Of a DNA stretch of 34,702 bases, positions 7,808 to 34,242 are shown piece after piece. Below the pieces are notes generated by a model, which saw nothing but the letters and a program-made list of their open reading frames with translations, had not been told where the DNA came from and made no database searches. Position 1 is the first letter of the stretch. Every line of letters starts with the position of its first letter. Position numbers and translations under genes: made by a program. Source of the DNA: Nemertoderma westbladi (taxonomy: Eukaryota > Animalia > Xenacoelomorpha); assembly GCA_032718475.1 (NCBI GenBank), contig JAUCBJ010006467.1:1-34702 (forward strand). The letters are read 5' to 3'.

Positions 7808-8471
7808 TGTAAGCGGATTCAATTCCACTTCATTACCCACCAGAAAATGGGATGGTGGCATTTTAGCAATATGTTGGAGATACGATATTAGCAATATTAA
7901 TCTCGTCTCATAACCAACATTTGGGGGGGGGGGGGGCGTCACAAGCCCCAAAGCCACATAGAAAGGAAGGTTAGAGGTCAAACCACCTCGGAGGGAACAC
8001 AGCTAGTAGAGGCTAGCAGCAGAGGGGAAACACTCCCAGAGAGTGCCAGGGTGAGAAGTAGCCTATTAGCCAATAGGGGGGAGGGAAGCACGTGATAGGA
8101 AACAGGAGAGCATCCATTAGGTAGCAGGCCAAGGTAGAGTAGGAGGTGAAGCAATATTAGTGTATCAGTCATATATTATGTCAGATTCTTGGATTGGTAC
8201 ATCAGTTAGTTAGTTACTCAGTTTTAGTGCAGACAGATAACAATTATTCACTGTCATCGTCATCGGCTGTCATCATATACTATTACCGGTATCAATCATA
8301 TACTATTATCTCTGTCATATATTATTGCTATCATATATTATAACATCAAGAAACAACATCAAACTCTGATCGCTTTTCTCCAACGGCCTCGGCGGAGCTA
8401 TTAGTACCATCTCAGAGCCAACGGTGACGCTTATAACAATTTACCCAGTCGGGATCTCTGATCCCGTCACA
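7808..8471 (+). repeat. 5' LTR of element A
   Basis: TGTAAGCGG...CCCGTCACA. About 97% identical by eye to 28996-29648 (roughly 18 substitutions, one ~8-bp indel, G-run length difference). Confidence 0.95.
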
Positions 8472-8482
8472 GTGAATAATTG
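8472..8482 (+). promoter_or_regulatory. Non-canonical primer-binding site of A (GTGAATAATTG)
   Basis: Directly follows the LTR, lacks TGG, and is the exact reverse complement of LTR positions 8241-8251 (CAATTATTCAC). Confidence 0.7.
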
Positions 8483-8530: not shown

Positions 8531-9297
8531 ATGGCAGAAGAAGGAAAGCCCCGATTATCAGAGGGAGAGAGAACGCCGCCGCAGACCCCGGACGATACCA
8601 ACCAAACAATCCATGAGGCCGCGACGCAACGGTATCGGCCTGCGACGCCGGATTCGCCGACAAGGGACGATCTGGTAGCCCAAGCGGAGGGCGGCCGTCA
8701 ACCACGAGGGAGGGACGAGTCGACGTACGATGGCGGTCAGAGTACCGAAGTCGCCGGACAGCCACAGGCCGAGGGCGACGGACGGCCCACCAGAACGGCA
8801 ACGGTGGGGCCGCCGGTACGATGCCAACCAGGAGAGGTGGAGGAGTCGGGAGACGGACGAGTCGAGGATGTCGGGACGAGTGATCGGCTACGACGGGCCT
8901 ACAACGCCACGAAGAAACTACTGAAGGAGGCCAGAGAGGGAGGAAAGGTAGACCAGCCTAAGTTACACCAAAGGCTAGGTGGGTCGAATAAACATTTTCG
9001 ACATTTAGTCCGTTTTGGACAGGGATAGCTGGCGAGTGAGAGACCGAGGGGGCTCGCCACCGAACTGTTTGAACTGTGGCGATCCGGGGTTATGGAGCCT
9101 GAAGTAGTGTACATAGGGCCATACTTAGTGGAAGCTAGGGGGATTAAGTTAGTGGGTTGGGCGGATCCGCACGAGGGTGAACCCGAGGTTAACCCCGAGG
9201 ATTCGGTCTCATCGGTTGGTGAGAACCCCAGAAAGCGGGGGAAAGTTAGTAGGACAGAGAGGCGACGGGAGACCGTCGCGACCGATAAGTCCGCTAC
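8531..9297 (+). pseudogene. gag: Element A gag N-terminus (in-frame stop at 9026-9028; interrupted by B)
   Basis: MAEEGK..TPPQTPD..EAATQRYRPATPD..VVYIGPY..KLVGW..EVNPEDSVSSVGE matches B's gag N-terminus at 22081-21300 (-). Confidence 0.85.
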
Positions 9298-9859
9298 TGT
9301 GACGGGATCCAGCGAGGATCCCGGTTTATCCGGTTTTTAATCTATGCGTCCCCGCCGTGTGTGAAAGGTGAAAGAGTTTGCTGATCGTTGTATGTAGTCC
9401 TTCGGGTATAATAGCATAAATGAATAAATGAATAAATGGAATTGTCAATAGAATATTAATGGTAAGCGGAAGGCGGGTATCGAAGACGGTGATTAAAGTC
9501 CCGGTACTTCCCTAGCTAAACTAACCTAACTAAACTGAATAAATGATACAATGAATAAATGATAGCTGCACTGATAATGTATATTGCACGGTTGGCCAAG
9601 TTACGTTACCCAGCCAGTGCCTTCCCCCCATTGGCTAATAACTCTGTTGTCACCCTTTGCCCCCCTCTGAAGTGCTTCCCTTCGCCCTTGCTATTCTCTC
9701 TCTTTCAGGGGTGTAACCGCTGACCCTTATTGTGCGTATGTGTCTCCTTCCCACTTGGTTGGGGTGACACGAGGTTGATATTGGTAATCAACCTCGTGCT
9801 CCCAATATTGCTTAACGGCTCGCTTTATGGGGTGGTTAGCGGAATTGGATAAGCTAACA
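9298..9859 (-). repeat. 3' LTR of element B
   Basis: TGT...ACA termini. About 10 substitutions relative to 22170-22731 by eye (~98%). Adjacent to the PPT. Confidence 0.95.
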
Positions 9860-9868
9860 CTCCCCCCC
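9860..9868 (-). promoter_or_regulatory. Polypurine tract of B (GGGGGGGAG)
   Basis: Purine run abutting the 3' LTR on the minus strand, equivalent to GGGAGGGAG in A. Confidence 0.85.
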
Positions 9869-10704
9869 ATGCTATCTTCCCGGTAAGAAGATAGCATCCA
9901 CCTCTAGTGCGCTACAATTCCGCTGGATCCCGACCTAGTGTCGGGTGTGGGGTGGGATTATTTTTCTTTCGGAGCCGGCTTTCCAGGCCGCTCCCTATGG
10001 GTATGATAATGCTACCCGTTTGCGTGGCGTCCCGTGTCGGGCTGATCGTGCGCTCCTCTCACACGACTTTTGTTTCCCCAGCACTTTCGCCACTCTAACT
10101 CTACTCTACTCTCACCCCAACTCTTACACTCTCGGACCTCTACGTCCCTTAATCTGCCTCTTACTTCTCCCCCCCCCCCCCCCCACACTTGAATTGCACT
10201 CGCACTCTCTCTATACCCCGCACTCTCTTTGCACTACAACTCAACCTCTATCCTGATCACTCACTCCCGACGAGTTTCACCCTTCCCTTTTGTGCCGTCG
10301 CACTCAAGAAGCGTGATGTCGTCCAATGTCTCGTCTGTGGTAGTATCATAGTCCATTGGTCCCCAGTCCCAGTAGCTAATTGAGAAAGGTTATACGACTA
10401 TAGTACTTACTTCGAATATATTTTTATCACTAGATTACTGATTATTACGTATGTACATACAAATTGCACTTATTCGATTATTTACATTATTTGAAATTGT
10501 ATTTAAGAGTTCGCACGTCTTAGTCTTAGTCTTAGTTCGTTCCACCAGCCTTTGGGAACCATCTTAAGTCTTTCCCTTTGCCGTCCTCTTCCCTGGGTCG
10601 TTTCCTGGTTATTACCGCTCCTCTGGGATCTGTTTTCTGTTTTCGGACTCTCGCTGCCACCTCCTTACTGATCCCGGTCGTTGGCTCCTTGGGTGCCGGT
10701 GTTA

Positions 10705-13078
10705 TCAGCTCCGATATCGCTTTGCGGGTGGCCCCTCCGAGTGGCCCTGTTGTCTCCCCCTGGTGGCGTCCCATAAGATCATCTTCATTGCTCGCGGCAC
10801 ATGCTCCGCCAAGAAATCCCTAAACTCTCCTCTGCTCTGTGGCGTCCACCTATCCAAATACCTCTGCGTATTTATCACCCCGGCATATGATGCCGCCGTC
10901 GCCACTTCCTGGTAGGTAAACGGAAGCCTCCGTTTGATAATCTCCATATGAGCCTCCTGATTGATGTTAAAGAAGCCCCACCGGAACTCCTGGGCCTTCA
11001 TACGTTGCTGAGTCATTGCCCCGACATCGGCCCACTCCTCGAAGACCCTAAACTTCTCTTCGTCGTCCATCCAGTCGCACTGGCGTCCGTAATGTCCCCG
11101 AAAGTTACATTTCGAACATCGGTTATGCAACCTTGGACACGCCCCCATCCTGTGGCTCAACTCGCGGCAATAGAGACAAAAGGTCCCTTTCTGGAACCGG
11201 TGCAAACAGCTTCTTTCCTGGTGGGTCTGTCTCCCACAGTAATCGCAACCGAGTACCAATGTCTCCCGCCCCACCTCGTCCCTCGTCCCAAGCGATCTCC
11301 GCGGTCTGTGGAGTCGCTGGTAAGCGAACTTCCAGACGTTAGTGTCCCTGTCTACGTCGATTTCCTCGCCCCTCTCGGGCATCGTCTCCCCGAATACTAC
11401 CCGTGGTGCCGTCCCCAGTTGCTCCCCAACCTGATAGTGCTCCCCGCGAAATCCATCGCCGGCTCCTCATGCACCCAGGCCCGCTTGCCAGGTCTATCCC
11501 AGAAGGCCCTCGCCCCACTGGCCGCCAACACCCTTCCGCCAACCCAGTCCGTGTCCGAGTGGCCCATCCTCCCGATGGGCGGCATCTCTCCGAACTCGTC
11601 GTCGTCTTCGTCCTCCTCTGGCAGTGGCTCCAACCCCGGTATCCCGGTGGATCAACTATGTCCCTTCCCGCCTTGGCTTTCGCCCGTAGCTCTCCATCCC
11701 TCTAGCTCCCCTAATTTCCTTAGCGGTTGGTCGCCCTCGTCGCCCGCTGGTATGGGCATCGCTTGCAACCCCGACGTCGACTGTTTCGGTGACCCCACCG
11801 TCCATCCCAGTTCTCGCCCTAGAGACTCCCCCGAACTCCCTGATGAAGTCCAACGAAGTTCGTCTAAGCCCGCCTGTTCCTCGAAGCCGTAGCTCTGCGT
11901 CCTGGCCTCCTCCTCCCTCTCCTCTGCTTCTCTCCTCTCCCGTCTAGCGACTTCTTCCAGTCGCTTTGCCTCCCGTCTATCCGTCTCTAGCTCCTCCCAT
12001 CTCTGATACGGCGTATCTATCTCCCCGTCTACCAGATGTCGGCTGTTGTAGTACACCGAATCGCCCTTCAGCCCCGGGTGGTCTACCAGACCATCGAAAG
12101 CCGTCTTAAAGGCTCTTCTGTAGCTTAGGGGTGATCCCGATAACAGAAATGCCGCTGGTTCCCTCTCGAAAACCACGGTTATGAATAAGTTAAGAAAACT
12201 TATCATTATCCAATCTTCCTGCAGGATATATCGCTTCTGATATACCTTTATCGCTCCTCTTCGGAATTGATACACCTCTTGCTTTCCCGGCCTCGCTCCC
12301 CACTTCAGCGAGTTCGCTAGTTCTGCTCCGTATTCTTCCCTGAACTTCCCCCAGTCCATCGGTTTGTGACATACGAGGCCCAATAGCTGGCCCATTGCCA
12401 CCGCTCCGCATTGGCCTGTGTTCTCGACTAGTCCCAACCCGTCTGGTGCTGTCATAGCCATGAAGACCTTCTGCATATCCAGGAGGTTGGTGGCGTCTGG
12501 ACTGATGATTCTCTCCGCGTCGTCGCGAATCGCCGATCCCACTTTCGTCGTCGACTTCTCCCTCACTAGGACCTGCACCGCCCTCGGCAGCCGGTCCAAC
12601 TTCGGCCCATCCTTCTTCCCATACGTTCCCAGGTCAAATAGGAAAATGTCCCCATTTGGCGCGGCCAAATGTAGGAGTGTGGTCCTGGCCGATCCTGCCG
12701 ATCCTCGTCTTCCACGGTCCCTTCGTCGTCTAGGATCATGTATCCTCCCCTGTTGACGGACTCTATGAACCTCTTCCAATCTTTCCTCAGTGACTCTCTC
12801 GCGTTCTTCGGAATCCCGAACTTCGCCTCGTCTCCTTTCACCACGTAGTGGAAATGCTCGAAGATCGCGTTGTCCAGCGACGGCGTCCCGTAGGTCTCGA
12901 CCAGTCGCTGTTCATGCATCTCCCTGAAGTGGTCTTGTAGCGCTCGTGCTGCGTGACCCTTTTCTAACCGGTCATAGTATCCCCTCGTCCTCTCTTCCGG
13001 ATGCCTCTTGGTGAAATCCACCAGTATCTCCTTTCCTCCTTGCTCCGCCTTTCTCTTTCGCACAAGTTTGCTTGCCAT
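10705..13078 (-). pseudogene. Accessory ORF of B: DEDDy-like (RNase D/WRN/EXD/Mut-7 type) 3'-5' exonuclease + acidic linker + three CCHC zinc knuckles; 2 frameshifts and 1 stop
   Basis: Joins ORFs 13102-12566, 12779-11652, 11633-11397 and 11382-10705. Motifs: ILDDEG (ExoI DxE, ~12730), LLHLAAP..IFLFDL..LPRAVQVLV..KVGSAIRDDAERI (ExoII)..LLDMQ..QKRYILQED (ExoIII-like). Knuckles: CDYCGRQTHQERSC, CLYCRELSHRMGAC, CSKCNFRGHYGRQC (11247-11077). The true C-terminus may extend to 10532 via another frameshift. Confidence 0.8.
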
Positions 13079-13569
13079 CTCGAACTCTGCCCGATCGCTC
13101 ACCTTTTGGGTGGTGCCTTGCCAAGGCCCTATAGGATGAGTGACAGGTTTAGATGGTTTATTTCAGTTCTATGGCCTATCTCTCTTTGAATTTCTGAGTT
13201 ATTGCCTATTTTACACTGCTTTATTTCTGTAGCTACCAAATTGTACCTAAATTACGAATTTGTCAGTTACTTTTATTGTATTCCAGAATTTTCTTTCCTA
13301 CTGTTACCATAATTTTCTAATTTTCAGCCCTATTCTTATTTATTTTAACTTAATTTTTAATTCTACTGTCCTACTACTTACTATTGCCTATGGATTATTC
13401 TATTTCCTAATCCACATTCTGGCCTACTCTGTGGGCTTGTGCAGTACAACAGTATGCGTCGCGCGGCCTACACAATTTATCCAGCTGTACTCATATGCCC
13501 CCCTCTCGCTACTAACTACTGACTAATATCTATACTATATATACCCTTCTACCTCTATCTCTTACTAAC

Positions 13570-14030
13570 TAGTACTACGTACTTTCTTACTAACTTCTGA
13601 CTCTCTCTAACTAACTAACAGTACTACGTACCCTCTAACTCTTACTTTCTCTAACTAACGGTACTATGTACCCTCTAACTCTTACTAACTCTCTAACTAA
13701 TGGTACTACATACCCTCTAACTCTTACTAACTCTCTAACTAATGGTACTATGTACCCTCTAACTCTTACTAACTCTCTAACTAATGGTACTACGTACCCT
13801 CTAACTCTTACTCTCTCTAACTAACGGTACTACGTACCCTCTAACTCTTACTAACTCTCTAACTAACGGTACTACGTACCCTCTAACTCTTACTCTCTCT
13901 AACTAACGGTACTACATACCCTGTAACTCTTACTAACTCTCTAACTAACGGTACTACGTACCCTCTAACTCTTACTCTCTCTAACTAACTAGCGGTACTA
14001 CGTACCCTCTTACTCTTACTATCTAACTTC
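13570..14030. repeat. Minisatellite (~39-42-bp unit) between integrase and accessory ORF of B
   Basis: About 10-11 copies of CTAACGGTACTACGTACCCTCTAACTCTTACT(AA)CTCTCTAA. Confidence 0.9.
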
Positions 14031-14176
14031 TATCTGCCTACTTACTGCGTATCTAGTTATGTACTTTTATTTATATATTTTTTATTTCATTTTTTTGTGT
14101 GGGAAGGGCGTCTCGCCCTCAATCCCACCCCCCTCAGTCCAAAACTTGGACGACTAAACTCCTCTCACACTCTACA

Positions 14177-16210
14177 CTAAGGTGCTCCCTCTAGAAGACA
14201 ACACTTTCCTACAGCCCGTCTGTAGGTTTTCCTGTCTTTCGCACCTATCTTTCCACCTATCCGCACTTCTACCGATCGGACTCTTCCGTCCTCGTCGGAG
14301 TAAGTGCCTACAACTCTCGCCAACCGCCACTGGTTGTTGATGATAGTGTCATCCGTGACGATCACGAGATCACCCACTTTCAGCTCTCTGTTCGTCTTCC
14401 TCCACTTACTTTTCCTGTGAAGCGTGGGTAGGTATACCTCAACCCATCTTCTCCAATATTTTGCGCTTATCGCCTTAGCGACTTTCCAACTCTGGCGTGA
14501 GTGTATGTCATCTGGGTCTACACCCCGCATGTCGATGGTCGCTGGTCTCTCCATTAGGAAATGGCTCGGCGTCAGCACGTCTAGTGACTCAGGGTCATCA
14601 TTCACTGGATATAGCGGTCTGCTATCAATGATACCCTCACACTTCGCAAGTACTGTCCTTAACACGTCCTCCGTAACCATATGGGTGTTCATCAACTTCG
14701 TCATCAGACGCTTTGAACTGCCCACTAGTCTCTTGACGCATCCTAGGGTATGCGGTGCATACGGCGTCCTCCTCTCCCATTTTACTTGTCGTCGCCTCAT
14801 GGCTGCCCTGACTTCCTCTCCTTCCAGGATATCCAAGGCCTCTGCCATCTCGTTCTCCGCCCCCACAAAGTTGGTCCCGTTGTCGGAGTATATTACTGCG
14901 ATCGTCCTACTTTTGCGGTCTCTAAACCTCTCTAAGGCATTAATGAATGCCGATGCGGTTGCATCTTGGGCGAGTTCTATCCCCACCGCCCGCGTGTTAT
15001 TACATACAAAGATAATACCGTATCGTTTCTCCGTGTGCCGCATCACTTTGATCTTTATCGGCCCGAACATGTCCACACCGCAATGTGTAAATGGCGGGTC
15101 GTGCTGTCTTACCCTACTCGCTGGTAGTGGTGCCATCTCCTGTATGGCTCGCTCCTTCTTTGCTCGTCGGCAGGTCTGGCACTGCCCCACTACCGCCTTT
15201 ACCTTCTTCCTTAATTGTTTGACCCAAAAGGTCCTCCTTATCTCCGTGAGGGTTCGGTTGGTGCCCCCGTGCAATATCGATTTATGGGAGTCCCATGTAA
15301 TCTGGTGGACTATCGGCGATCCTGTGGGGATGATGATGGGCTTCGGTGGAACAACGATACTGTTGTTGTATCCCACCCTAGAGTTCATTACTAGGATCCC
15401 GTCGTCATTAAGTTGTGGCGACAGCGCGGTCAGCTCGCTGTCCCGTCGGAGATGCTGTTGTTTACCGACGCGTTCCACCTTATCGCCGTAGTTCTTCCTC
15501 TGCTCGTAGCGGATGACTGCTTTAGCCGCTCCTTCCAGATCTATTGTCATTCTAATCTTCACGTCTTTGCCAACTCCCCTGAGGAAATTCCAGAAAGCTC
15601 TCCAGTATGCCACTAATTTCTTGGTCTTGTACCAACTAGAACTGTAGCTAAGGAGTTTAACCGTCGGGTTATCGCACAGTTCTCCTGGTTTTGGTTGCAC
15701 GTCCCTAATCTCCCTCACCATCTGGGAGTATATATCTTCTCCCTCTGAATCTCCCTCTTCTCCTTCTAGCACTACTTCTCCTGAGCCCGGGTCCACCTTT
15801 CTCATCGGTGGCCAGGCCTCCCTATCGCTCAGAAACTGTGGCCCGTGTTGCCACAATACTTCCTTCTTCAAGAAAGTGTGGCGTACCACGCCCCTCGATA
15901 ACAAGTCCGCTGGGTTCTCGTCCGTTGGGCAGTAGTGCCACCTTTCCAATTCTGTAGTCGCCCTTATTTCGTCCACCCTATTCGCGACGAATATAGGGTA
16001 TCTCGTCCTTTCGTTATGTAGCCAACCAAGCACTACCATGGAATCCGTCCAGTAGTGTGTCTCCACTATGTTGGGAATAGTATCCACTAGGTAGGCTGTA
16101 GCCCTAACTCCTAGTCTCGCAGCTGTCAATTCTAGTTTGGGAACTGATGCTGAATCTGGCGGCGTTGACTTCGCTTTGCTAAAGGCCAGTCTGGGCTTGT
16201 GAGCCCCCTC
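14177..16210 (-). pseudogene. pol: B pol C-terminal part: RNase H remainder + integrase + DUF5641-like tail
   Basis: VPKLELTAA, YWTDSMVVLGW, FVANRV, ENPADLLSRG; HHCC zinc finger (HKSILHGG..CQTC); GVDMFGP, SDNGTNF, GCVKRLV (catalytic E replaced by K); YWRRW..YLPTL..LKVGDLVIV..WRLARV. In frame with the upstream ORF across the TGA at 16211-16213. Confidence 0.93.
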
Positions 16211-18694
16211 TCATTGTACTAAATAGAGTGCCGCTCCGTATGCCTCCAACGATGCATCGGAGAACATGTGTAAGTCCAGATTCGTCATGTTCCCATCCGG
16301 GAAATACACTCTTGGCATGCTGTATGTTCCCATCTGCTCCAGACTCTCTGTCCACTTATACCACTGCTTTCTAATCTCTTCCGGGACCTCTGCGTCCCAC
16401 TCGTCCTTTAGCTTGTACACTTTCTTGAGTATCTGTTTCCCCGTGACTAGTAGTGGGGATGCTAGGCCTAGGGGATCGTATATCCTTGCTATGTACGACA
16501 CATAGCCCCTCTTTGTGTGGATATCTGCGCCCTCCTGACTCAACTGGTACTTCAGTTCATCCGTCTCTCTGTCCCACATGATTCCCAGTGCCTTCTGTTG
16601 TGACTCTATTCTCTTGTTCGCCATGTCCTGCCCCTTGGCTGTTGTGGGATTATCCATGGTCGATCCTGGTCTCTCGTCTTTTATCGCCTCGATAAATTCC
16701 TTCGAACTGGATTGGAATTTGGTTAGGTTGAAGCCGGATCCCTTAAGGATGACGCGAACCTCACGCCCTGTGTCCAGTAGCTCCTTAACCGTATTTCCAG
16801 ACTCCATCCCGTCGTCTACGTAGAAGCCGCGTCGAATCATATCGACGGCTCTAGTGCTGTACTTATCTTCCTTTCCCTTTACTGTGTCTCTTACGGCCAT
16901 AGTCGTTGTGAACGAAGAAGACTTGGCTCCCATATTCTGTACTACCACCTTATACATTGGTATGGTCGACGGTTCCTCATCGCCGTCGTACCGTAGGAAG
17001 CGTTGGCTGTCGCTATCCTCTTCCGTCACACGGACTTGGTTGAACATGCCTTCTATGTCACAGGTGAAGGCGTGTTTTCCATTCCTAAACCTGATTAGGA
17101 CCTCTATCCCTGAGTTGTATATGTTGGGACCTTCTAGCAGATAGTCGTTTAGGCATTTCCCGGCGGTCTTTGCCGATGCGTCCACTACCATCCGCAGTTT
17201 ACCTTTCTTCGGGTCTAAAGCCACGTGGAGTGGCAGGTAATATGTCCTGTCTGTGTTTGGTTCATTGACCGGTAACTCCACGGCCCATCCCTTCTCGACG
17301 TATTTTCTGATCGTTTTGTGAATGTACTCATTCTTTTCGGGGCTCCGTTTTAACGTCTGTTTCAACTTACGAAGCCTCGTGAGTACCATCGCTTTATTAT
17401 CGGGCAGTGGTAACTTTGGTAGCTTCCATACCATTCCTATGGTATACCGCCCCTCCTCGCATCTCATAGACTCCTCCACACTCTGCTGAGCCTGTTTGTC
17501 TTCCACCGAGGTTCCGACCCCGGTTTCCTTTAGTCCCTCAAAATCTTGCCTGAGCAGTCTTTTGAGCTGTTCCTCCGCTCTCTCATCCCCTATTTCTTGC
17601 ATAGTTCCTGCGAACATGCATCCCGATGTCTCCGACATCCAAAATGGTATCTTACTCCTAATTGGGCCACTCAGCGTCCACCCGAACGGCGTCAATATCG
17701 CCACCGGATCACACTGCTTGTCTTCGCCGAAGACCGTTTGCATTCTTTCGTGGGCCGCCGGGCAGTCCATTCCTACTATGATGGATACCTTCCTGACGTC
17801 CACCTCTGGGATTGAGAAGTCGATATCGTCCAGGAATTTATATTGCTCGACCTCGATGTTGGTTGGTCGCCTGGCATTGATATTTATTGACTCTATCACT
17901 TGGATGGGGTCGATGGTCGCCCCGTAGTCGCATCGCGGTGCCACCGCTGCAATTGCGCACCATCCGGTCCTCATCTCCAGGACCTTATCTTTGCTAGAAA
18001 TTGTTGTCACCGCCATTCTACTTGGCCTCGTTCTCAATCCTATCTCTTCGGCCACCCAATTTTCAATTAGCGTGATGGCAGCTCCACTATCGACCAGCAT
18101 CAATGTGGTCACTGATCGATTGCCTTCCCCAATCACTCGCACTGGTACTACCCCAAGTAGCACCGTTCCTCTCTTCTTCGCCCCTACTGTGCTCGTTGCC
18201 ATCATTTGGCCTTTGCTTTGACCGAACTTGATCGGCGTCTCCTTGCATTGTCTAGCTCTATATCCACCCATTACACACCGCGAGCAGATCTCGTTTTTCG
18301 CCGTGTACTCTACCTGATCTTCCCTGGGTAGCGCTTGCCAGTAGCTACAGTTCATGGTTCGATGATGCGCATTTGTCTGTAGTTGGCATTTGCTCTTTGG
18401 GTCGTAGCCGTCCTTGTACAGTGCATCGCGTATCGCAGCCGCACCCGTACCAAATTCCCTACTATTCTTATTGTTTGGGTTCGGCCTACTGGGCGTACTG
18501 GGGTTATATTTATTTGTGTTGTTATCCCTCTCCTGTCCGCTCCATGATGTGGTCTTACCCCCGGCTACCTGTGGACTCGCAGTCCCCTGCATCGCTGCGT
18601 ATGGCAATGAGCTTTGGTAATGCGTTTGACGTGTTGTGCTCTGGTTTCGGTCTATGGTAGTCGGTTCTTGGTCCCTTTCCCAGGCTGTCCTCAC
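16211..18694 (-). pseudogene. pol: B gag zinc-finger region + aspartic protease + reverse transcriptase + start of RNase H
   Basis: CSRCVMGGYRARQC; LVDSGA; AILTPFGWTLSG; YYLPLH, LRMVVDAS, CLNDYLLEGP, CDIEGMFNQV, FYVDD; IYDPLG; HMFSDASLEAYGAALYL. These are Pao-type motifs. Confidence 0.95.
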
Positions 18695-21600
18695 TATAGA
18701 CTGGGTCGGTTATTAATTCGGCTTCGAAGTTTAAGAAGCTCGACATTTCTTCTAAACCCGGTTCCGCACCCTTCCTATCTCGAGTGGAGAAAGCGATCTT
18801 CCTCCATTTGTTGCGCAGCCACATCGGTAGTGCCTGCGCTATCGTGGTGATGTTGTTGGACGCGTTGAGTTCGTATGGCGCGTCTAGCGTCTTTAGCACG
18901 ATTAGCGCCTTCTCGACTTTGTTAGCGAATGTCTTTATGCTAACGGGATTATCCTGTAGGCCACCCGATGTTATGCCCCTCAGGGTTTGCCGGATGATCT
19001 TGGCCGGGTGCCCGTATTCCCTGTCCAGTGCCCACCATGCCGTCGTGAAGCCGCCCTCTATGCCCTGGTATTGCCTCACGATGTCGTATGCTGGGCCTCC
19101 TGTATATACTTGCAGATATTTTAGGCACTCCGCCTGCGTCAAGTTCTTTGTTAGTATTTCGTTACTATACATGCGCCGAAACTGCAGATATTCTTCCGGC
19201 CTACTCCCATCGAATTTAAATGGTTCTACGGGTGGTAACTCGATCCTAGTTTTTAACGCATCGATCAACGTGGCCATCCCCATCGCCTGCGCTTCCAATG
19301 GGTTCGATGGATGTTGTATAGTTTCTCCTGTTGGGTGTGGTCCGTCCGTCCTATTTCCTACCTTCCTTTGGCTAGGGTATATCATTGGGGGTAGCGGCCC
19401 CCTCCATATTTCTGTGTCGCATGATCTGTTGTCATCCAAGGGTCTCGTTGTTCTTACTCCTATCGGGGTATATTGTTGATATTGTGATGGGGGAATGTCA
19501 CCCTGTCCCCACCCCCCCCCCCCCCCCCCCACCGGTATGCTTGGTACTGGGGTTGATGTTAATATATTGGGGCCCATGCACCTATCCGCAATAATTCCCC
19601 CCTCCCCTGGGTATATGTTATGTCCCTGCATGCTGTAGTCATACTGCTGTGCTGGTACCGGTATAGGCCCACCAGCTCCTGGCCTACCCGCCGGTATGTA
19701 CTCTGCGACTTCCGGGTTTAATTCCGTTGTCCGCGCTATCCTATCGCCTACATTGTTCCTGTCAGCATGGCCTATGGTATGTGCAGTAAGGCCTACAGTA
19801 TGTCCTACAGTCTGTATGTGTCGCTCGGGATCGAAGTTTAATCTTCTCGAGTAATCCTCCCCGCGGCTACCGTATTCTCGATCGGTAGTTATATCCCGCC
19901 GGAAAGTTTCTCTTTGACCCGCTCCACTACTCTCGTTCTCGTGTCGGTACATCGCGTACCCCTCTATCGGCGCGTAGTGCGCCTCGTCAGGTCGCGCCTC
20001 TCCGGGACGACGGCAATCTCCCGAAGTTTGACCCCACCGACTTTCCGTTCTCATCTCGACTATCGACGGCTCGGTATCCGTCCTCGCTCTCCTATCGCCC
20101 GCGGCGATACTTCTTCTACTTTCTTCTCTTCTTCTCTCTCCAGTGCAGTATTCCCGCTCGTGAGATCTCTCCTCCATCTCCCGGTTAAACTCCACTGTTC
20201 TTCTTCCCTCTTCTGATCGGGCTCGACGCTTCGTCTGCCCTCTCGCGACGTCAACCTGCCTCTCTCTGCTCGATCGCACGCTGCTGGGGATACTCGCAAT
20301 CCCCCTATCACTCTCCGTCGCCGGGTGTTGCGGTTTACCTGTCTCGGCCCGCGCATTATCCATTGACGCCTGTGGGACACTCTCTGCCCCCCCTCTCTCG
20401 CCACTAATTTGTCATGGTGGGGCGCCCGTAGCCCCCCCCCCCCCCCCCCCCCACTCGCCACATTTCACTTCACTATCTCTTACTTCACCTCTACACCCCT
20501 CTCTAGTCGACGCACTGTCTCTACTGCGGCTGGGTCCGTTCACCCCCGCCTCTCTCTCCAGTATTGCGTGGCCTACCAGGCCCACCTCGGGTTGGTTCAA
20601 CCCCGCTACCTCCTGCCTACCAACTACGCGGCCTACCAGGCCCCCGTCGGGTTGACTTAACCCCGCCACTTCCTGCCTACCAACTTCGTGGCCTACCAGG
20701 CCCCCGTTTGCCGGGTTGTATATGTCCGACGCGTTCACGTTAATAGCACCACCGTGATTGTCGCCAATTTGGCCCTCTAGTTCACCTGAATTATTTTATG
20801 CACCAAAACTAGAAACAGAATTATTCTGTTCGTTCTAGATAGGATTATTTGAATTATTTTGTGTGGGTACATTATTTGAATTATTTTGCAAATTCGGGTT
20901 TGGATCATTATTTAAATTATTTGGATTAATTTGTAAATTCGAATTCGGATTGTTATTTAAATTATTTGGGTTAATTGCATTTAAGTTTAAATTACTACTA
21001 CTAGGTAAAGTATTTCCTGGAATAAAGGTTTGGTTAGGATTATCTAATACGGTACTATTAATATTAACGTCGTCTACTGTATTATTATTATTACCCCCCC
21101 CCCCCCCGCCCGTACGGTCACACCAGTCTCGGGTCTGTCGTGCGGTCCCTGTAAGTGGGGTACTAATAAATGTATCCACGGCCCTTGGCTCTTCGAGAGC
21201 ATTCGAGCCAGCGTCACTCTCTGACAACCCCATCTGCGCCAGTTTCAGTTTGTGTCTCTTTATGGCTTGGTAGTGGATAAGCCCCCTCCGACGGGCATTT
21301 AAAATGTAGCGGACTTATCGGTTACGACGGATTCCCTCCGCCTTCCCGTCCTACTGACTTTCCCCCGCCTCCCTGAACTTTCTCCGACCGACGAGACCGA
21401 ATCCTCGGGGTTAACCTCGGATTCGCCCACCTGCGGTCTCCTCCAACCCACTAATTTTACTCCCCGGGCATCGACTGAGTATGGCCCTATGTACACTACT
21501 CTAGCCCACATACCCATACACTTCCATAGATCAGACAGTTCGCTGGCAACCCCTCTCACCCTGTCCTCGGCTAGTTCTCTCTGCCCAAAGCGCATTAAGT

Positions 21601-22081
21601 AGTTGAAATGTTCGTTCGACTCACCTACTCTCTTTCTTAGCTTTACCTCATCTATCTTCGCCCCTCCTTTGGCCTCTTTAAGTATCTTCCGGGTCGCGTT
21701 GTAGGCCCGTCGAAGTCGATTGCTGACCCCGACGTCCTCCGCGCCGACATCTCCTCCATCTCTCCGAGTCCAGCGTCATACCGTCGGCTCCACCGTCACC
21801 GTTCCGGTGGACCGTCCGTCGCCCTTGGCCTGTGGCTGGCCGGCGACATCGGTGCGTCGACCCCCGCTCCGCGTCGACTCGTCTCTCTCTTCTCCCGACT
21901 CATCTCTTCCTTCTCTCGACTCGCTCTCCGGTTGTAGACGGTCCCCCTAATCCTGAATTGCCGGGTCGCCCGTTACCGATGGGTCCGGCGTCGCGGGTCT
22001 ATACCGTCTAGTCGCGGCCTCGCGGATCGTTAGATCGCCGTCCGGGGTCCGCGGCGGTGTCATCTCTCCCGTTTGACTCAT
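18555..22081 (-). pseudogene. gag: B gag (long low-complexity N-terminus, DUF1759-like core), fragmented by stops and frameshifts
   Basis: ATG at 22081 (MSQTGEMTPPRTPD). Asn-rich tract at 21100-20835. Core ELPPVEPFKFDGSRPEEYLQF..LKYL..GPA..AWWALDREYG..LPMWLRNKW. Collinear with A's gag. Confidence 0.88.
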
Positions 22082-22160
22082 CTTTATATCTGGCAGTTGA
22101 TCGGTGGTTCAATCACTCGGGTTTAATCACTCTGGTAGTTAACTAGGGTAGCAGCTCCGA

Positions 22161-22169
22161 TTTAATCAC
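22161..22169 (-). promoter_or_regulatory. Non-canonical primer-binding site of B (GTGATTAAA)
   Basis: Directly follows the 5' LTR on the minus strand, lacks TGG, and is complementary to LTR-internal TTTAATCAC (22369-22361 and 9497-9489, minus strand). Confidence 0.7.
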
Positions 22170-22731
22170 TGTGATGGGATCCAGGGAGGATCCCGGTTTA
22201 TCCGGTTTTTAATCTACGCGTCCCCGCCGTGTGTGAAAGGTGAAAGAGTTTGCTGATCGTTGTATGTAGTCCTTCGGGTATAATAGCATAAATGAATAAA
22301 TGAATAAATGGAATTGACAATAGAATATTAATGGTAAGCGGAAGGCGGGTATCGAAGACGGTGATTAAAGTCCCGGTACTTCCCTAGCTAAACTAACCTA
22401 ACTAAACTGAATAAATGATACACTGATTAAATGATAGCTGCACTGATAATGTATATTGTACGGTTGGCCAAGTTACGTTACCCAGCCGGTGCCTTCCCCC
22501 CATTGGCAAATAACTCTGTTGTCACCCTTTGCCCCCCTCTGAAGTGCTTCCCTTCGCCCTTGCTATTCTCTCTCTTTCAGGGGTGTAACCCCTGACCCTT
22601 ATTGTGCGTATGTGTCTCCTTCCCACTTGGTTGGGGTGACACGAGGTTGATATTGGTAATCAACCTCGTGCTCCCAATATTGCTTAACGGCTCGCTTTAT
22701 GGGGTGGTTAGCGGAATTGGATAAGCTAACA
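22170..22731 (-). repeat. 5' LTR of element B
   Basis: Direct repeat of 9298-9859. Inr-like TCAGTT at 22410-22405 (-). Confidence 0.95.
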
Positions 22732-22736
22732 GCTAC

Positions 22737-27639: not shown

Positions 27640-28290
27640 TAAGTAGAAAGTTAGAAAGTAATAGTAGTAGATAGTTAGATAGTAGGTAGCACTAGTTAGA
27701 AGTTAGTAGAAGTTAGTAAGAAGTTAGAAAGTTAGTAGAAGTGAGTAAGAAGTTAGAAAGTTAGTAGAAGTTAGTAAGAGTAAGAGGAGAGTTAGAAGTA
27801 GGCAGAAGATAGGGAGTGTGGTATATAAACATACCACGGGAGTAGGAGGGTACATAGTACTGTTAGAAGTAGGCAGAAGATAGGGAGTATGGTATATAAA
27901 CATACCACGGGAGTAGGAGGGTACATAGTACCGTTCGAAGTAGGCAGAAGTTAGGGAGTGTGGTACATTGGCGTACCACGAGAGTAGCAGGGTACATAGT
28001 AACGAGAGAGTTAGAGGTTGTGGGCACCGAAAGCGCCACCTAGAAAGAGGGTAGAGGGTATGGTATGTAGGTATACCATAGAAGTAGTGACAGAAGGGTT
28101 GTGGGCACCGAAAGCGCCACGTAGAAAGAGAGTGAGGGTATGGTATGTAGGTATACCATAGAGGTAGTAGCAGAGGGGTTGTGAAGGGTGTGGTATGTAG
28201 GTATTAGCAGTATTAGGGTACATAGTACCATAGAAGTTAGAAGTTGTGGGCACCGAGAGCGCCTTGTAGTAAGAAAGTAAAGACTATGTA
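27640..28290 (+). repeat. Compound tandem repeats in A's post-integrase spacer
   Basis: GTTAG(T/A)AGAA-type short repeats, then three ~70-bp units and ~82-bp units. The core GAGGGTACATAGTAC is shared with B's minisatellite. Confidence 0.8.
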
Positions 28291-28389
28291 GGCATAGTAT
28301 AGTAGTAGTAGGGTACAGGGTAAGAAGTAAGTAGCAAGGTAGATAGGATGATAGCGCAGACAGGGGTAAGACTAAGGAAAATTGGCACT

Positions 28390-28600
28390 TTGGGAGTGGT
28401 AGAGAACACAGGACATTGTGGAGCAGTGGGGATGGGCCAGCTCATGGGCCTTGTCTGCCACAAGCCGATGGACTGGGGCAAGTTCCGGAGGGAGCACTGA
28501 GCGGGCACAGGAAATTGTGGAGCAGTGGCGATGGGCCAGCTCATGAGGCTTGTCTGCCACAAGCCGATGGGCTGGGGTAAGTTCCGAGAGGAGTATGAGA
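28390..28600 (+). pseudogene. Two tandem fragments of the exonuclease ORF retained in A
   Basis: LGVVENTGHCGAVGMGQLMGLVCHKPMDWGKFRRE and TGNCGAVAMGQLMRLVCHKPMGWGKFREEY versus B's LGLVENTGQCGAVAMGQLLGLVCHKPMDWGKFREEY. Confidence 0.9.
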
Positions 28601-28986
28601 GGAGTACAAGGGAAGTATGGAGAGGAGGTGTTGGCGCATGAGGAAGTGAGAGGAGTGCAATTCAAGTGTGGGGAGCGAGCAGAGAGAGAGAGAGAGTAAG
28701 GGACAGAAGGGTCCGAGAGTGAGGTTAGAATGAGTTCAGAGTGAAAGTTTTTTAAAATTGTGTGAAAAGAGAGTCCACAATTGTCTCGAACAGAGACGTC
28801 AGATACATTGGTGCAACATAGCTCACGATTGCACCAAGGAGGGGTAGCAACATCATACCCAGGGGGGCAGCCTGGAAAGCCGACCCCGAGAAAAGAACTC
28901 CACCCCACACCCGATAGTAGATCGGGTTCCAGCGGAATTGAAGCGCACTTGAGGTTGATGCTATCTTCTCACCGGGAAGATAGCAT

Positions 28987-28995
28987 GGGAGGGAG
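28987..28995 (+). promoter_or_regulatory. Polypurine tract of A (GGGAGGGAG)
   Basis: Purine run abutting the TGT start of the 3' LTR. Confidence 0.85.
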
Positions 28996-29648
28996 TGTAA
29001 GTGGATTCAATTCCACTTCATTACCCACCAGAAAATGGGATGGTGGCATTTTAGCAATATGTTGGAGATACGAGATTAGCAATATTAATCTCGTATCATA
29101 ACCAACATTTGGGGGGGGGGGCGACACAAGCCCCTAAGCCACATAGAAAGGAAGGTTAGAGGTCAAACCACCTCGGAGAGAACACAGCTAGTAGAGGCTA
29201 GCAGCAGAGGGGAAACACTCCCAGAGAGTGCCAGGGTGAGAAGTAGCATATTAGCCAATAGGGGGGAGGGAAGCACGTGATAGGGAACAGGAGAGCATCC
29301 ATTAGGTAGCAGGCCAAGGTAGAGTAGGAGGTGAAGCAATATTAGTGTATCAGTCATATATTATGTCAGATTCTTAGATCAGTTAGTTAGTTACTCAGTT
29401 TTAGTGCAGACTGGTAACAATTATTCACCGTCATCGTCATCGGCTGTCATCATATACTATTACCGGTATCAATCATATACTATTATCTCTGTCATATATT
29501 ATTGCTATCATATATTATAACATTAAGAAACAACATCAAACTCTGATCGCTTTTCTCCAACGGCCTCGGCCAAGCTATTAGTACCATCTCAGAGCCAACG
29601 GTGACGCATATATCAATTTACCCGGTCGGGATCTCTGATCCCATCACA
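28996..29648 (+). repeat. 3' LTR of element A
   Basis: Direct repeat of 7808-8471, followed by TSD ATAAA. Confidence 0.95.
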
Positions 29649-30520: not shown

Positions 30521-30636
30521 ACAAAATTAAATGAACAATAATTATATACCAGTAACAATAAATTACTCAAAAATCTTTGAAAATTTAAATTACCACATAC
30601 ATTAAACCAATTGAAATTTCTTTTGTTTCATTATGC

Positions 30637-33600
30637 CAAACTCGTTTCGACTCTGGCGAGTTCGTCCTACCTCGTTCGGACTGTATTGGGTTCGTCAAAC
30701 CTCATTCCGACTGCGACCATAGCGGGTTCGACAAACCTTGTTCCGACTGTATCGGGTACGTCAAACATCGTTTCGACTGTAGCAGGTTATTAAAACGTCG
30801 TTCTGACCATAGCGGGTTCGTCAAACCTCGTTCTGAACGGAACCATTGCGGGTTCGTCAAACCTTGTTCCGACCGTATCGGTTCGACAAACCTCGTTCTG
30901 ACCATAGAAGGGTTCGTCAAACCTCGTTCTGACCATAGCGCGTTCGTCAAACCTCGTTGTGAACACGACCGTAGCTGGTTCGTCAAACATCATTCTGAAT
31001 GCGACCGTAGCGGGTTTGTCATACCTCGTTCTGACCACGACCATAGCAGGTTCGACAAACCTTGCTCCAACCATATCGGATACGTCAAACCTCGTTCCGA
31101 CCATAGCAGCAGGTTTGTCAAGCCTCGTTCTGAACGTGACCGTAGCGGGTTCGTCAAACGTCGCTCTGACCACGACTGTAGAAGGTTCGACAAACCTTGT
31201 TCCAACCGTATCAGGTACATCAAACCTTGTTCCGACCATAGCGGGTTATTAAAACGTCATTCCGACCATAGTGGGATTGTCAAACCTCGTTCCGACTGTA
31301 TCGGGTTCATCAAACCTTGTTCCAACCATAGTGAGTTCATCAAACCTCGTTCTGAATGCGACTGTAGCGGGTTTGTCAAACCTCGTTCTGAACGTGACCA
31401 TGCGGGTTCATCAAACCTCGTTCCGACCGTGACTGTAGCGGGTTTGTCAAACCTCGTTCTGAACGCGACCATAGTGGGTTCGTCAAACCTCGTTCAAACC
31501 ACAATGGTAGTGGGTTTGACAAACCTCATTCCGACTGTATCAGGTCCATCAAACCTCGTTCCGTTCCGACCGTAGCGGGTTCTTCAAACCTCGTTCTGAC
31601 CATAGCGGGTTCGTCAAACCTCGTTCCAACGGCGACTGTAGCAGGTTCAACAAACCTTGTTCCGACCGTATCAGGTTCGTCAAACCTCGTCCCGACTATA
31701 TCGGGTACATCAAACCTAGTTCCGACCATAGCGGGATATTAAAACGTCGTTTCAACCATAGCGGGTTCGTCAAATCTGACCGTATCGGATATTTCAAACC
31801 TCGTTCCGACCATAGCGGGTTATTAAAACATCATTCTGACCATAGCGGGTTCATCAAACCTCGTTCTGAACGCGACCGTAGCGGGTTCGTCAAACCTCAT
31901 TCTGACCGTGACCGTAGCTGGTTCAACAAACCTTGTTCCGACTGTATTGGGTACGTCAAACCTCGTTCCGACCATAGCAGGTTATTAAAACGTCGTTCCG
32001 ACCGTAGTGGGTTCGTCAAACCTCGTTCAGAACGCGACTGTAGCGGGTTCGTCAAACCTCGTTCCAACCGCGACCATAGCGGGTTCGACAAACCTCGTTC
32101 CGACTGTATCGGGTACGTCAAATCTCATTCCGACCGTAGCGGGTTATTAAAACGTCGTTCTGACCATAGCGGGTTCGTCAAACCTCGTTCCGACCACGAC
32201 TGTAGCGGGTTCAACAAACCTTGTTCCGACCGTATTGGGTTCATCAAACCTTGTCCCGACCGTATCGGGTACGTCAAACCTAGTTCCAACCATAGAGGGG
32301 TATTAAAACGTCGTTCCGACCATAGCGGGTTCGTCAAACCTCATTCTGACCGTATCGGATTTGTCAAACCTCGTTCCGACCATAGCAGGTTCATAAAACC
32401 TCGTTCTGAATGCGACCGTAGCGGGTTCGTCAAACCTTGTTATGACCATAGCGGGTTCGTCAAACCTTGTTCCGACCGTATCGGGTTCGTCAAACCTCGT
32501 TCCGACCGTATCGGGTTCGTCAAACCTCGTTCCGACTGCGACCATAGCGGGTTCGACAAACCTCGTTCCGACCATATTGGGTACGTCAAACCTCATTCCG
32601 ACCGTAGCGGGTTATTAAAACGTCGTTCCGACCATAGCAGGTTCATCAAACCTCTTTTCGACTGTATCGGGTTCGTCAAAACTCATTCCGACCATAGCGG
32701 GTTCGTCAAACCTCGTTCTGAACGCAACTGTACCGGGTTCGTCAAACCTTGTTCCAACCATATCGGGTTCATCAAACCTCGTTCTGACCATAGCAGGTTC
32801 ATCAAACTTCGTTCTGAATGCGACCATAGTGGGTTCGTCAAACCTTGATCTGAACGCGACCATAGCGGGTTCATCAAACCTAGTGCCGACTGCGACCGTA
32901 GCAGGTTCGTCAAACCTCTTTCTGAACGCGACCATAGTGGGTTCGTCAAACCTCGTTCCGACCACGATGGTAGCAGGTTCAACAAACCTTGTTCCGACTG
33001 TATCAGGTTCATCAAACCTCGTTCCGATCCGACCATAGTGGGTTCTTCAAACCTCGTTCTGACCATAGCCGGTTAATTAAACCTCGTTCCGACCGCGACC
33101 GTAGCTGGTTCGACCATATCGGGTTCGTCAAACGTCGTCCTGACCGTATCAGGTACATCAGACCTAGTTTGACTGTAGCGGGTTATTAAAACGTCATTCC
33201 AACCATAGCGGGTTCATCAAACCTCATTCCAACCATATCGGGTTCATCAAACCTCGTTCCGACCATGGCGGGTTCATCAAACCTCGTTCTGAACGCGACC
33301 ATAGCGGGTTCGTCAAACCTTGTTATGACCATAGTGGGTTCGTCAAACCTCGTTCCGACTGTATCGGGTTCGTCAAACCTCGTTCCGACCATAGCGGGTT
33401 CTTAAAACGTTGTTCTGGCCGTATCGGGTTCGTCCAACCTCATTCCAACTGTACAGTCGTAGCAGGTTTGTCAAACCTCGCTCCGGCTGTAGCGGGTTCA
33501 TCAAACCTCGTTCCAACCATACCGGATTTGTCAAACCTTGTTCTGACCGTAGCGGGTTTGTCAAACCTTGTTCCGACCATATCGGATTCGTCAAACCTCG

Positions 33601-33737
33601 TTCCGACTGTAGTGGGTTCGTAAAACGTCGTTCCAACCATAGCGGGTTCGTCCAACACCAACCTCATTCCGACCATAGCAGGTTTGTCCAACCTCATTCC
33701 GATGGTAGCGGCAGCGGGTTCGACAAACCTCGTTCCA
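30637..33737. repeat. Minisatellite array, 30-bp unit with 36-bp variants (~95-100 units)
   Basis: Consensus GGGTTCGTCAAACCTCGTTCCGACCATAGC with 6-bp insertion variants (e.g. TGAACGCGACC). No unique spacers. Confidence 0.95.
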
Positions 33738-34242
33738 GCGTATTTATTGTGATTTTAAATTAGACCAAACAGAAATGACCATAACTCCGGAACCGTTATT
33801 GCAACATCACTGGGACCTTCACTAACGGGCTGAGATCGCTCCAGAAAACATTTTAATCTTTTATTCGCCGCACCAAGACCAAAGTGAATGGATCTCGAGA
33901 TATGGAGTCTTGAAAATCGACCAATCACAGCACAGAACTCTTTAACTGGTGGTTCGACCGCGATAGCGTCGTCGGCAGCATGATGGGGATGGACCTATAA
34001 ATATTTTAAGCTTTTATTCGACGCTCCAAAGTTAATAGATCTCGAGATATAGGGTTTTAAAATTTCGACCAATCACTGGCTACGTACCAATCGTACAGAT
34101 CGTACCGAGATGAACAAAAAAAATGCCGTTGCTATGAGAAAAACCAAATACTTTTCGAGAAAAATCGATTAGAAAACTTTAAATCTAATTACTAATTAAA
34201 TAATTTACATATTTTTCCACAAAAACTCCTAGCTATTAAATG

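Follow-up and report, generated by a model that had tools for sequence, protein, structure and literature searches.

A Tf1-like self-priming signature in two BEL/Pao retrotransposons of Nemertoderma westbladi, with a probable accessory nuclease gene

Introduction

What primes reverse transcription in a BEL/Pao retrotransposon whose primer-binding site (PBS) does not begin with TGG? This question is raised by a 34,702-nt stretch of the Nemertoderma westbladi contig JAUCBJ010006467.1 (hereafter the window), which holds two broken BEL/Pao elements with long terminal repeats (LTRs), element B (9298-22731, minus strand) being nested inside its relative, element A (7808-29648, plus strand). The profile of the international virus taxonomy committee (ICTV) has the Belpaoviridae primed by tRNA and calls their replication poorly understood (PMC8742986), and in Tf1 the primer is made by RNase H cleavage, according to the available text of PMC7175516. 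An earlier sequence-only reading of the window had proposed a different route, in which an exonuclease encoded by a third open reading frame (ORF3) of both elements trims an LTR-derived RNA back to its duplex with the PBS and so makes the element's own primer. Here we report what appears to be a Tf1-like self-priming signature in BEL/Pao, together with a probable accessory nuclease gene, for which a role in priming is not supported.

The PBSs of A and B are complementary to their own LTRs

Each PBS directly adjoins its LTR and neither begins with TGG, so the 18-nt PBS for tRNA-Arg or tRNA-Gly given in the Belpaoviridae description was not found in A or B. The PBS of B pairs over 9 nt with a segment of both its LTRs (matched by 88 of 5000 LTR shuffles), and that of A over 11 nt with both of its own (8 of 5000 shuffles); coordinates are given in Table 1. 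These LTR segments, here called anti-PBS, occupy the homologous aligned LTR position in A and B, and the two positions that differ between the elements both remain paired, that is, the changes are compensatory, while crossed combinations of the A and B PBSs and LTRs give at most 5 nt of pairing. In this respect the sequence-only reading is borne out in both elements, as is the C/A mismatch which it had described at the duplex edge and which is present in both B LTRs and in the 3′ LTR of A; the 5′ LTR of A has a T there, and pairing continues. A mismatch at the edge is itself a consequence of choosing the longest match. A splice-aware test (described below) found no splice junction giving a better PBS match in A or B. 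Complementarity of the PBS to the element's own LTR RNA, the property that marks the Tf1/sushi group, is thus supported as a putative self-priming signature in A and B.

The leader of B (22169-22108) holds three PBS-like copies, which could be the product of repeated self-primer copying.

Distant BEL/Pao relatives also pair with their own LTRs

For comparison, 80 BEL/Pao loci with a reverse transcriptase (RT) 30-37% identical to that of B were fetched from metagenome contigs with an alignment of RT and RNase H (RH). Thirty loci with terminal repeats were inspected, and the 10 with a defined 5′ LTR end were counted, 70 of the 80 being left out; manual placement was used for one LTR end and for one LTR start, and the terminal CA is lacking in three LTRs. 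TGG was present at the PBS in none of the 12 elements (the 10 relatives, A and B), and the 18-nt tRNA PBS missing from A and B is therefore read as a gap in the Belpaoviridae description. Without splicing and at offsets of 0-2, three of the 10 relatives beat shuffles. With offsets of 0-5 and a single GT-AG intron within the LTR permitted, in a splice-aware test designed after inspecting these loci, all 10 relatives paired over 10-12 nt with their own LTR, four of them directly and six (L005, L035, L048, L051, L056 and L061) only across a predicted GT-AG junction. In these six the PBS complement attains 11-12 nt only once the predicted LTR intron is removed, although that intron is retained in the DNA. 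Shuffled leaders with the same freedom matched the relatives' pairing in 0 of 300 trials at nine loci and in 1 of 300 at the other. The cognate LTR gave the top score in 12 of 12 rows, and among the 132 crossed pairs one reached 10 nt and none 11. In all 12 elements pairing begins 0-4 nt from the LTR end; 10 of them have AC as the last two bases of the paired segment, which suggests one shared end-making step. Among 18 further loci, searched blind and without controls, six gave a GT-starting complement of 11-12 nt and the other 12 showed nothing clear.

The splice donor of L035 has a TATA-like box 36 nt upstream of it, a spacing at which roughly the first dozen bases of the spliced RNA could serve as primer. 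In L016:2516-3400, a 10-nt stretch that begins with TGG can pair with LTR-side sequence upstream of it. Among the matches listed, all 53 RT homologues have either Pao-type Pfam domains or just RT, and none pointed to the Ty3/gypsy lineage; no BEL/Pao loci were found in viral contigs.

The relatives also bear on ORF3. Their internal regions measure 5.7-6.6 kb, compared with 12.3 kb in B, and are filled in nine of the 10 by a single ORF of 1825-2156 aa, that of the remaining one being broken. Between integrase and 3′ LTR, B has 4.3 kb housing ORF3, and the 10 relatives have 79-402 nt, with no room for such a gene. Pfam detected no exonuclease family in nine of the relatives' polyproteins; since Pfam also misses ORF3 of B, the argument for absence rests on this lack of room. 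The duplex edge coincides with the LTR end in two of the relatives. Given that all 10 readable relatives are self-complementary without room for ORF3, a self-complementary PBS needs no element-encoded exonuclease, and the proposal that such an enzyme makes the primer is not supported by them. The sequence-only reading had itself named two kinds of relatives that together would speak against it, and one of these, self-complementary relatives lacking the ORF, was found in 10 of 10.

ORF3 of B is a probable nuclease gene

By eye, the exonuclease-like motifs of ORF3 stand in order: DxE across a frame break at about 12720-12685, which separates the ExoI-like from the ExoII-like motif, then the ExoII-like D, and finally an ExoIII-like Y-x3-E-D, the spacing of which is non-canonical compared with YxxxD. 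In the ESM Atlas (a language-model search), 27 of 30 matches were PF01612, with a best score of 0.92, which shuffled proteins reach in 4-10 of 100 cases; a shorter ORF3 piece scored 0.83 and is a lead only. Pfam and NCBIfam gave no exonuclease match to ORF3 at E values up to 10, nor did the sequences of PDB chains give any match at that threshold. An RNase D profile was not significant, 55 and 67 of 500 shuffles scoring equally, the profile being narrow (63 gammaproteobacterial-type sequences), and single-sequence AlphaFold folds had confidence scores (pLDDT) of 35 and 36. No ORF3 homologues were found by word search (139 candidates of only 102-328 aa), in viral, metagenome or prokaryote contigs, or in the 80 BEL/Pao loci (best E 0.5), and the one match among 1.84 billion representative proteins was a spurious repeat protein. 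The DEDDy exonuclease assigned earlier thus finds support in the Atlas matches and the motifs seen by eye, and none in Pfam, the RNase D profile or the folds; on balance, we consider that ORF3 probably has a DEDDy-type fold.

In the main frame of ORF3, 8 of the 11 variable sites listed fall at third codon positions (a selected table, 40 of 2582 rows), a hint that the gene may be under purifying selection. Contigs in three of four sequencing runs (two samples) join across 11939-13061, which corresponds to a 1121-nt deletion and defines a family variant without the exonuclease-like domain. A splice-acceptor-like sequence was noticed by eye at 13150-13125 (minus strand), about 50 nt upstream of the ORF3 start codon, and ORF3 may be made from spliced RNA.

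Self-pairing and exonuclease had been said to occur together in both elements. Only B shows this combination: the ORF3 remnant of A contains none of the three Exo-like motifs, and therefore A and B are not two observations of a link between pairing and exonuclease. ORF3 is read as a putative accessory RNA nuclease or RNA-binding protein of the B lineage with another job, such as RNA end processing or counter-silencing.

Predicted RNA start, folds and ends

With the initiator-like TCAGTT as the predicted RNA start, the anti-PBS ends at +48 in four of four LTRs, and other initiator-like sites give +32 to +85; the 5′ LTR of A also has a pentamer resembling a downstream promoter element (DPE; Table 1). 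The earlier placement of the anti-PBS 40-50 nt inside R, the part of the LTR repeated at the RNA 3′ end, thus agrees with the TCAGTT prediction and not with the whole range of candidate starts. The predicted duplex of B spans +2 to +48 with -38.8 kcal/mol, partly via the second PBS copy, and its non-core part was matched by 11 and 7 of 1000 shuffles.

Repeated AATAAA stands on the plus strand of the B 3′ LTR (9419-9436 and 9536-9560), opposite to B transcription, and may end antisense or read-through RNA.

How the primer may be made

We propose that A and B prime with their own RNA and that, as in Tf1, the primer 3′ end results from cleavage by the RT/RNase H of the element rather than from trimming by ORF3, and we give this a probability of about 0.5. 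The RNA would start about 48 nt before the cut site, and its 5′ part would pair with the PBS and leader, either in cis or on a co-packaged second RNA. Cleavage by RT/RNase H after ...AC would then free a 3′-OH next to the U5 hairpin, and minus-strand DNA would begin at the LTR end. On the best reading of the sequences, Tf1-like self-priming may be widespread in BEL/Pao, with ORF3 as an accessory. Several points weigh against this proposal. The primer of Tf1 is the first 11 nt of its RNA, compared with about 48 nt predicted here, and start site, primer and cut are all predictions from sequence. In A, the extension of the pairing beyond the core does not reach significance (573 and 358 of 1000 shuffles), the core pair probability in the cis fold is only 0.44 for B (0.92 for A), and few relatives have a U5 hairpin of comparable stability (-1.2 to -8.6 kcal/mol, compared with -10.1 to -15.6 kcal/mol). 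In addition, an RT-RH tree of 85 sequences (midpoint root, no references from the named clades Tas, BEL, Pao, Sinbad, Suzu, Dan and Flow) puts B on a long branch and outside the clade that holds the 10 relatives, seven of the 10 relatives have a poly(A)-signal-like hexamer 6-32 nt past the anti-PBS, and the intron retained in six of them is easier to reconcile with a primer supplied in trans or by the 3′ copy than with a simple loop in cis.

The last two points fit a short LTR RNA or a 3′ end as the source of the primer, and it is possible that priming relies on a separate short LTR transcript or on the 3′ R copy, with a tail that host nucleases take off or that is absent from the outset through early termination near +48, and with no element exonuclease involved. 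That these relatives do without ORF3 agrees with such a scheme, and the trimming to the duplex edge envisaged earlier survives in it as geometry, the substrate being the 3′ R copy or an LTR RNA that is short or spliced, with host enzymes in place of an ORF3 that is not needed. In B, however, the only such hexamer lies far from the anti-PBS (Table 1) and A has none, and the conserved AC end would be unnecessary for trimming to a duplex edge; we regard this alternative as less likely than the first. The tRNA priming given for Belpaoviridae in the ICTV profile (PMC8742986), together with the modest 9-nt match of B taken by itself, would suit a host-derived primer, either a tRNA fragment or another small RNA, in which case the pairing between LTR and PBS would be a regulatory or packaging structure. 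This is very unlikely in view of the absence of TGG, the start of pairing close to the LTR end in every element, and a PBS that differs between families and tracks its cognate LTR, which is not expected from a fixed host primer.

The relatives are distant and B has a long branch, so a role of ORF3 confined to the B lineage remains compatible with the comparison: ORF3 would make or improve the primer by trimming a short LTR RNA, or the 3′ R copy, as far as the duplex. By its Atlas matches ORF3 resembles 3′-5′ exonucleases, the gene looks maintained, the ancestor of A also had ORF3, the tail past the anti-PBS would be longer in B than in most relatives, and the available part of Rodriguez 2017 (PMC5408684) proposes 3′-end processing of element RNA for such ORFs. 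We nevertheless consider this restricted version unlikely, as the relatives are self-complementary without ORF3 and in two of them duplex edge and LTR end coincide exactly, A lacks the Exo motifs, the profile searches and the predicted folds gave no exonuclease support, the ExoIII spacing is non-canonical, and the deletion variant has lost the domain; DEDDy ORFs are also described, in the same portion of that paper, in Penelope-like elements, which are not LTR elements. A bolder and improbable picture would have a large BEL/Pao branch drop tRNA priming for its own LTR-derived primer RNA, often spliced, used in trans and 3′-trimmed, with the B lineage capturing a DEDDy-knuckle nuclease for its longer tail.

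Other features of the window

B is flanked by a 5-bp target-site duplication. All 30 bins of B are covered by contigs of four runs (three samples) and its empty insertion site is present in three of the four, from which it follows that B is a true insertion and a member of a repeated family. A has its own 5-bp target duplication, has lost RT and nearly all of the integrase, and shares 75% identity with B across 2.9 kb of the gag-protease region. B has the LTRs, polypurine tract (PPT), target duplication, order of gag, protease, RT, RH and integrase, and Pao domains (Peptidase_A17, E 5e-29) of a BEL/Pao member.

About 250 nt upstream of the PPT (9765-10017 in B, 28842-29098 in A) are 77% conserved, including a 13-bp hairpin that touches the PPT, and this stretch is a possible packaging or plus-strand priming signal. 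Both elements carry tandem repeats between integrase and ORF3, of about 42 nt in B (13542-14060) and 71-80 nt in A (27700-28310). Outside A and B lie a large array of 30/36-nt repeats (30650-33750) with long open frames at 30589-31575 and 31520-32848, and a diverged satellite of five copies of a unit of about 163 nt (874-1673). Rfam gave no matches over 7500-30000, and no tRNA gene was found in the window.

Table 1 Coordinates of the elements and their features in the window
Feature	Position	Strand	Remarks
A 5′ LTR	7808-8471	+	anti-PBS 8241-8251; initiator-like +1 at 8204; DPE-like AGACA at +28 to +32
A PBS	8472-8482	+	no TGG
ORF3 remnant in A	28390-28596	+	two overlapping short similar pieces; none of the three Exo-like motifs
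A 3′ LTR	28996-29648	+	anti-PBS 29418-29428
B target-site duplication	9293-9297		5 bp; other copy 22732-22736
B 3′ LTR	9298-9859	-	562 nt; 10 differences from the 5′ LTR
ATTAAA	9336-9341	-	sole poly(A)-signal-like hexamer in B LTR, 147 nt past anti-PBS end; none in A
B anti-PBS core, 3′ LTR	9489-9497	-	
B polypurine tract	9860-9868	-	13-bp hairpin (9897-9869) just before, also in A
Three CCHC knuckles (CX2CX4HX4C)	11077-11247	-	in ORF 10705-11466, other frame than the exonuclease-like piece
ORF3, DEDDy/RNase D-like	11652-13078	-	by eye: ExoI-like 12730-12722, ExoII-like 12524-12519, ExoIII-like 12230-12213
B gag-pol, several pieces	14177-22081	-	Pfam: DUF1759, aspartyl protease, RT, Peptidase_A17, integrase, DUF5641
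B PBS	22161-22169	-	no TGG; extra copies 22130-22122 and (one change) 22116-22108
B 5′ LTR	22170-22731	-	562 nt, TG..CA
U5-end hairpin next to PBS	22176-22194	-	stem kept in 4/4 LTRs; loops differ between A and B
B anti-PBS core, 5′ LTR	22361-22369	-	predicted imperfect pairing continues towards 22408
Initiator-like TCAGTT	22405-22410	-	predicted +1 at 22408 (9536 in 3′ LTR); alternatively readable as splice acceptor

Relation to known systems

PDB entries 7c42 and 7c45 (CCHC-type domain-containing protein), which we take to be trypanosome RNase D, combine an exonuclease domain with CCHC knuckles, as B does; unlike them, B has the domain and the knuckles in separate frames in this copy, and ORF3 matches no PDB chain in sequence. 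Nematode work of about 1999-2000 reportedly found that Tas/Cer elements contain an RNase D-like domain and that Cer7 encodes its own primer; if so, both themes, the RNase D-like domain and the self-primer, have a BEL/Pao precedent.

As described in the available text of PMC7175516 and PMC4600332, Tf1, Tf2, Tj1 and the Tf1/sushi group resemble A and B in having a PBS of about 11 nt complementary to their own LTR RNA, no tRNA and a U5-end hairpin; among the references of PMC7175516, one title mentions the requirement for a U5 stem-loop. The group, which belongs to Ty3/gypsy, has its anti-PBS in the first 11 nt according to the same texts, whereas A and B are BEL/Pao elements with an anti-PBS end predicted about 48 nt in, and in six of the 10 BEL/Pao relatives the anti-PBS is predicted to be splice-joined. 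B shares with the Belpaoviridae the LTRs, the PPT, gag followed by protease, RT, RH and integrase, and Pao-specific Pfam domains, and differs from them in lacking the 18-nt tRNA-Arg/Gly PBS, in its length (13.4 kb compared with 4.2-10 kb) and in a third ORF that is nuclease-like and not env-like (PMC8742986).

In the portion of Rodriguez 2017 at hand (PMC5408684), DEDDy ORF3s are reported from rotifer LTR and Penelope-like elements, with a proposed role in 3′-end RNA processing and no demonstrated activity, and an RNase D-like ORF downstream of pol, as in B, is described for the bdelloid LTR elements Juno and Vesta and for Athena/Terminons. Unlike B, Juno and Vesta are presented there as rotifer retrovirus-like lineages with a dUTPase, and B adds three CCHC knuckles to what their ORF3 holds, the B and rotifer ORFs being likened by description only. 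A term search of PMC5408684 found no mention of BEL, PBS, priming or tRNA. We found no literature on self-priming in BEL/Pao, in a search whose coverage leaves most subscription papers outside. Among the terms asked of PMC554778, PMC3118150, PMC2774666 and PMC9094657, PBS, tRNA priming and exonuclease were unmentioned in the available text, and the accessible parts of PMC3601003, PMC11662393 and PMC6431247 held nothing on BEL/Pao priming.

Significance

If the pairing found here is the primer, the Tf1/sushi group is not alone in self-priming, which may be common in one of the main animal LTR superfamilies, splicing sometimes serving to assemble the primer. These elements would then be misjudged by LTR finders that demand a tRNA PBS, and a defence based on tRNA fragments would not reach them. 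A 3′-trimmed LTR primer used in trans would, if true, add a third route of priming to tRNA priming and cleavage of the Tf1 type. The link between exonuclease and primer would matter more if it were true, but the evidence points away from it; what B adds is the extension of a nuclease-like ORF3, described in rotifer elements, to a BEL/Pao family.

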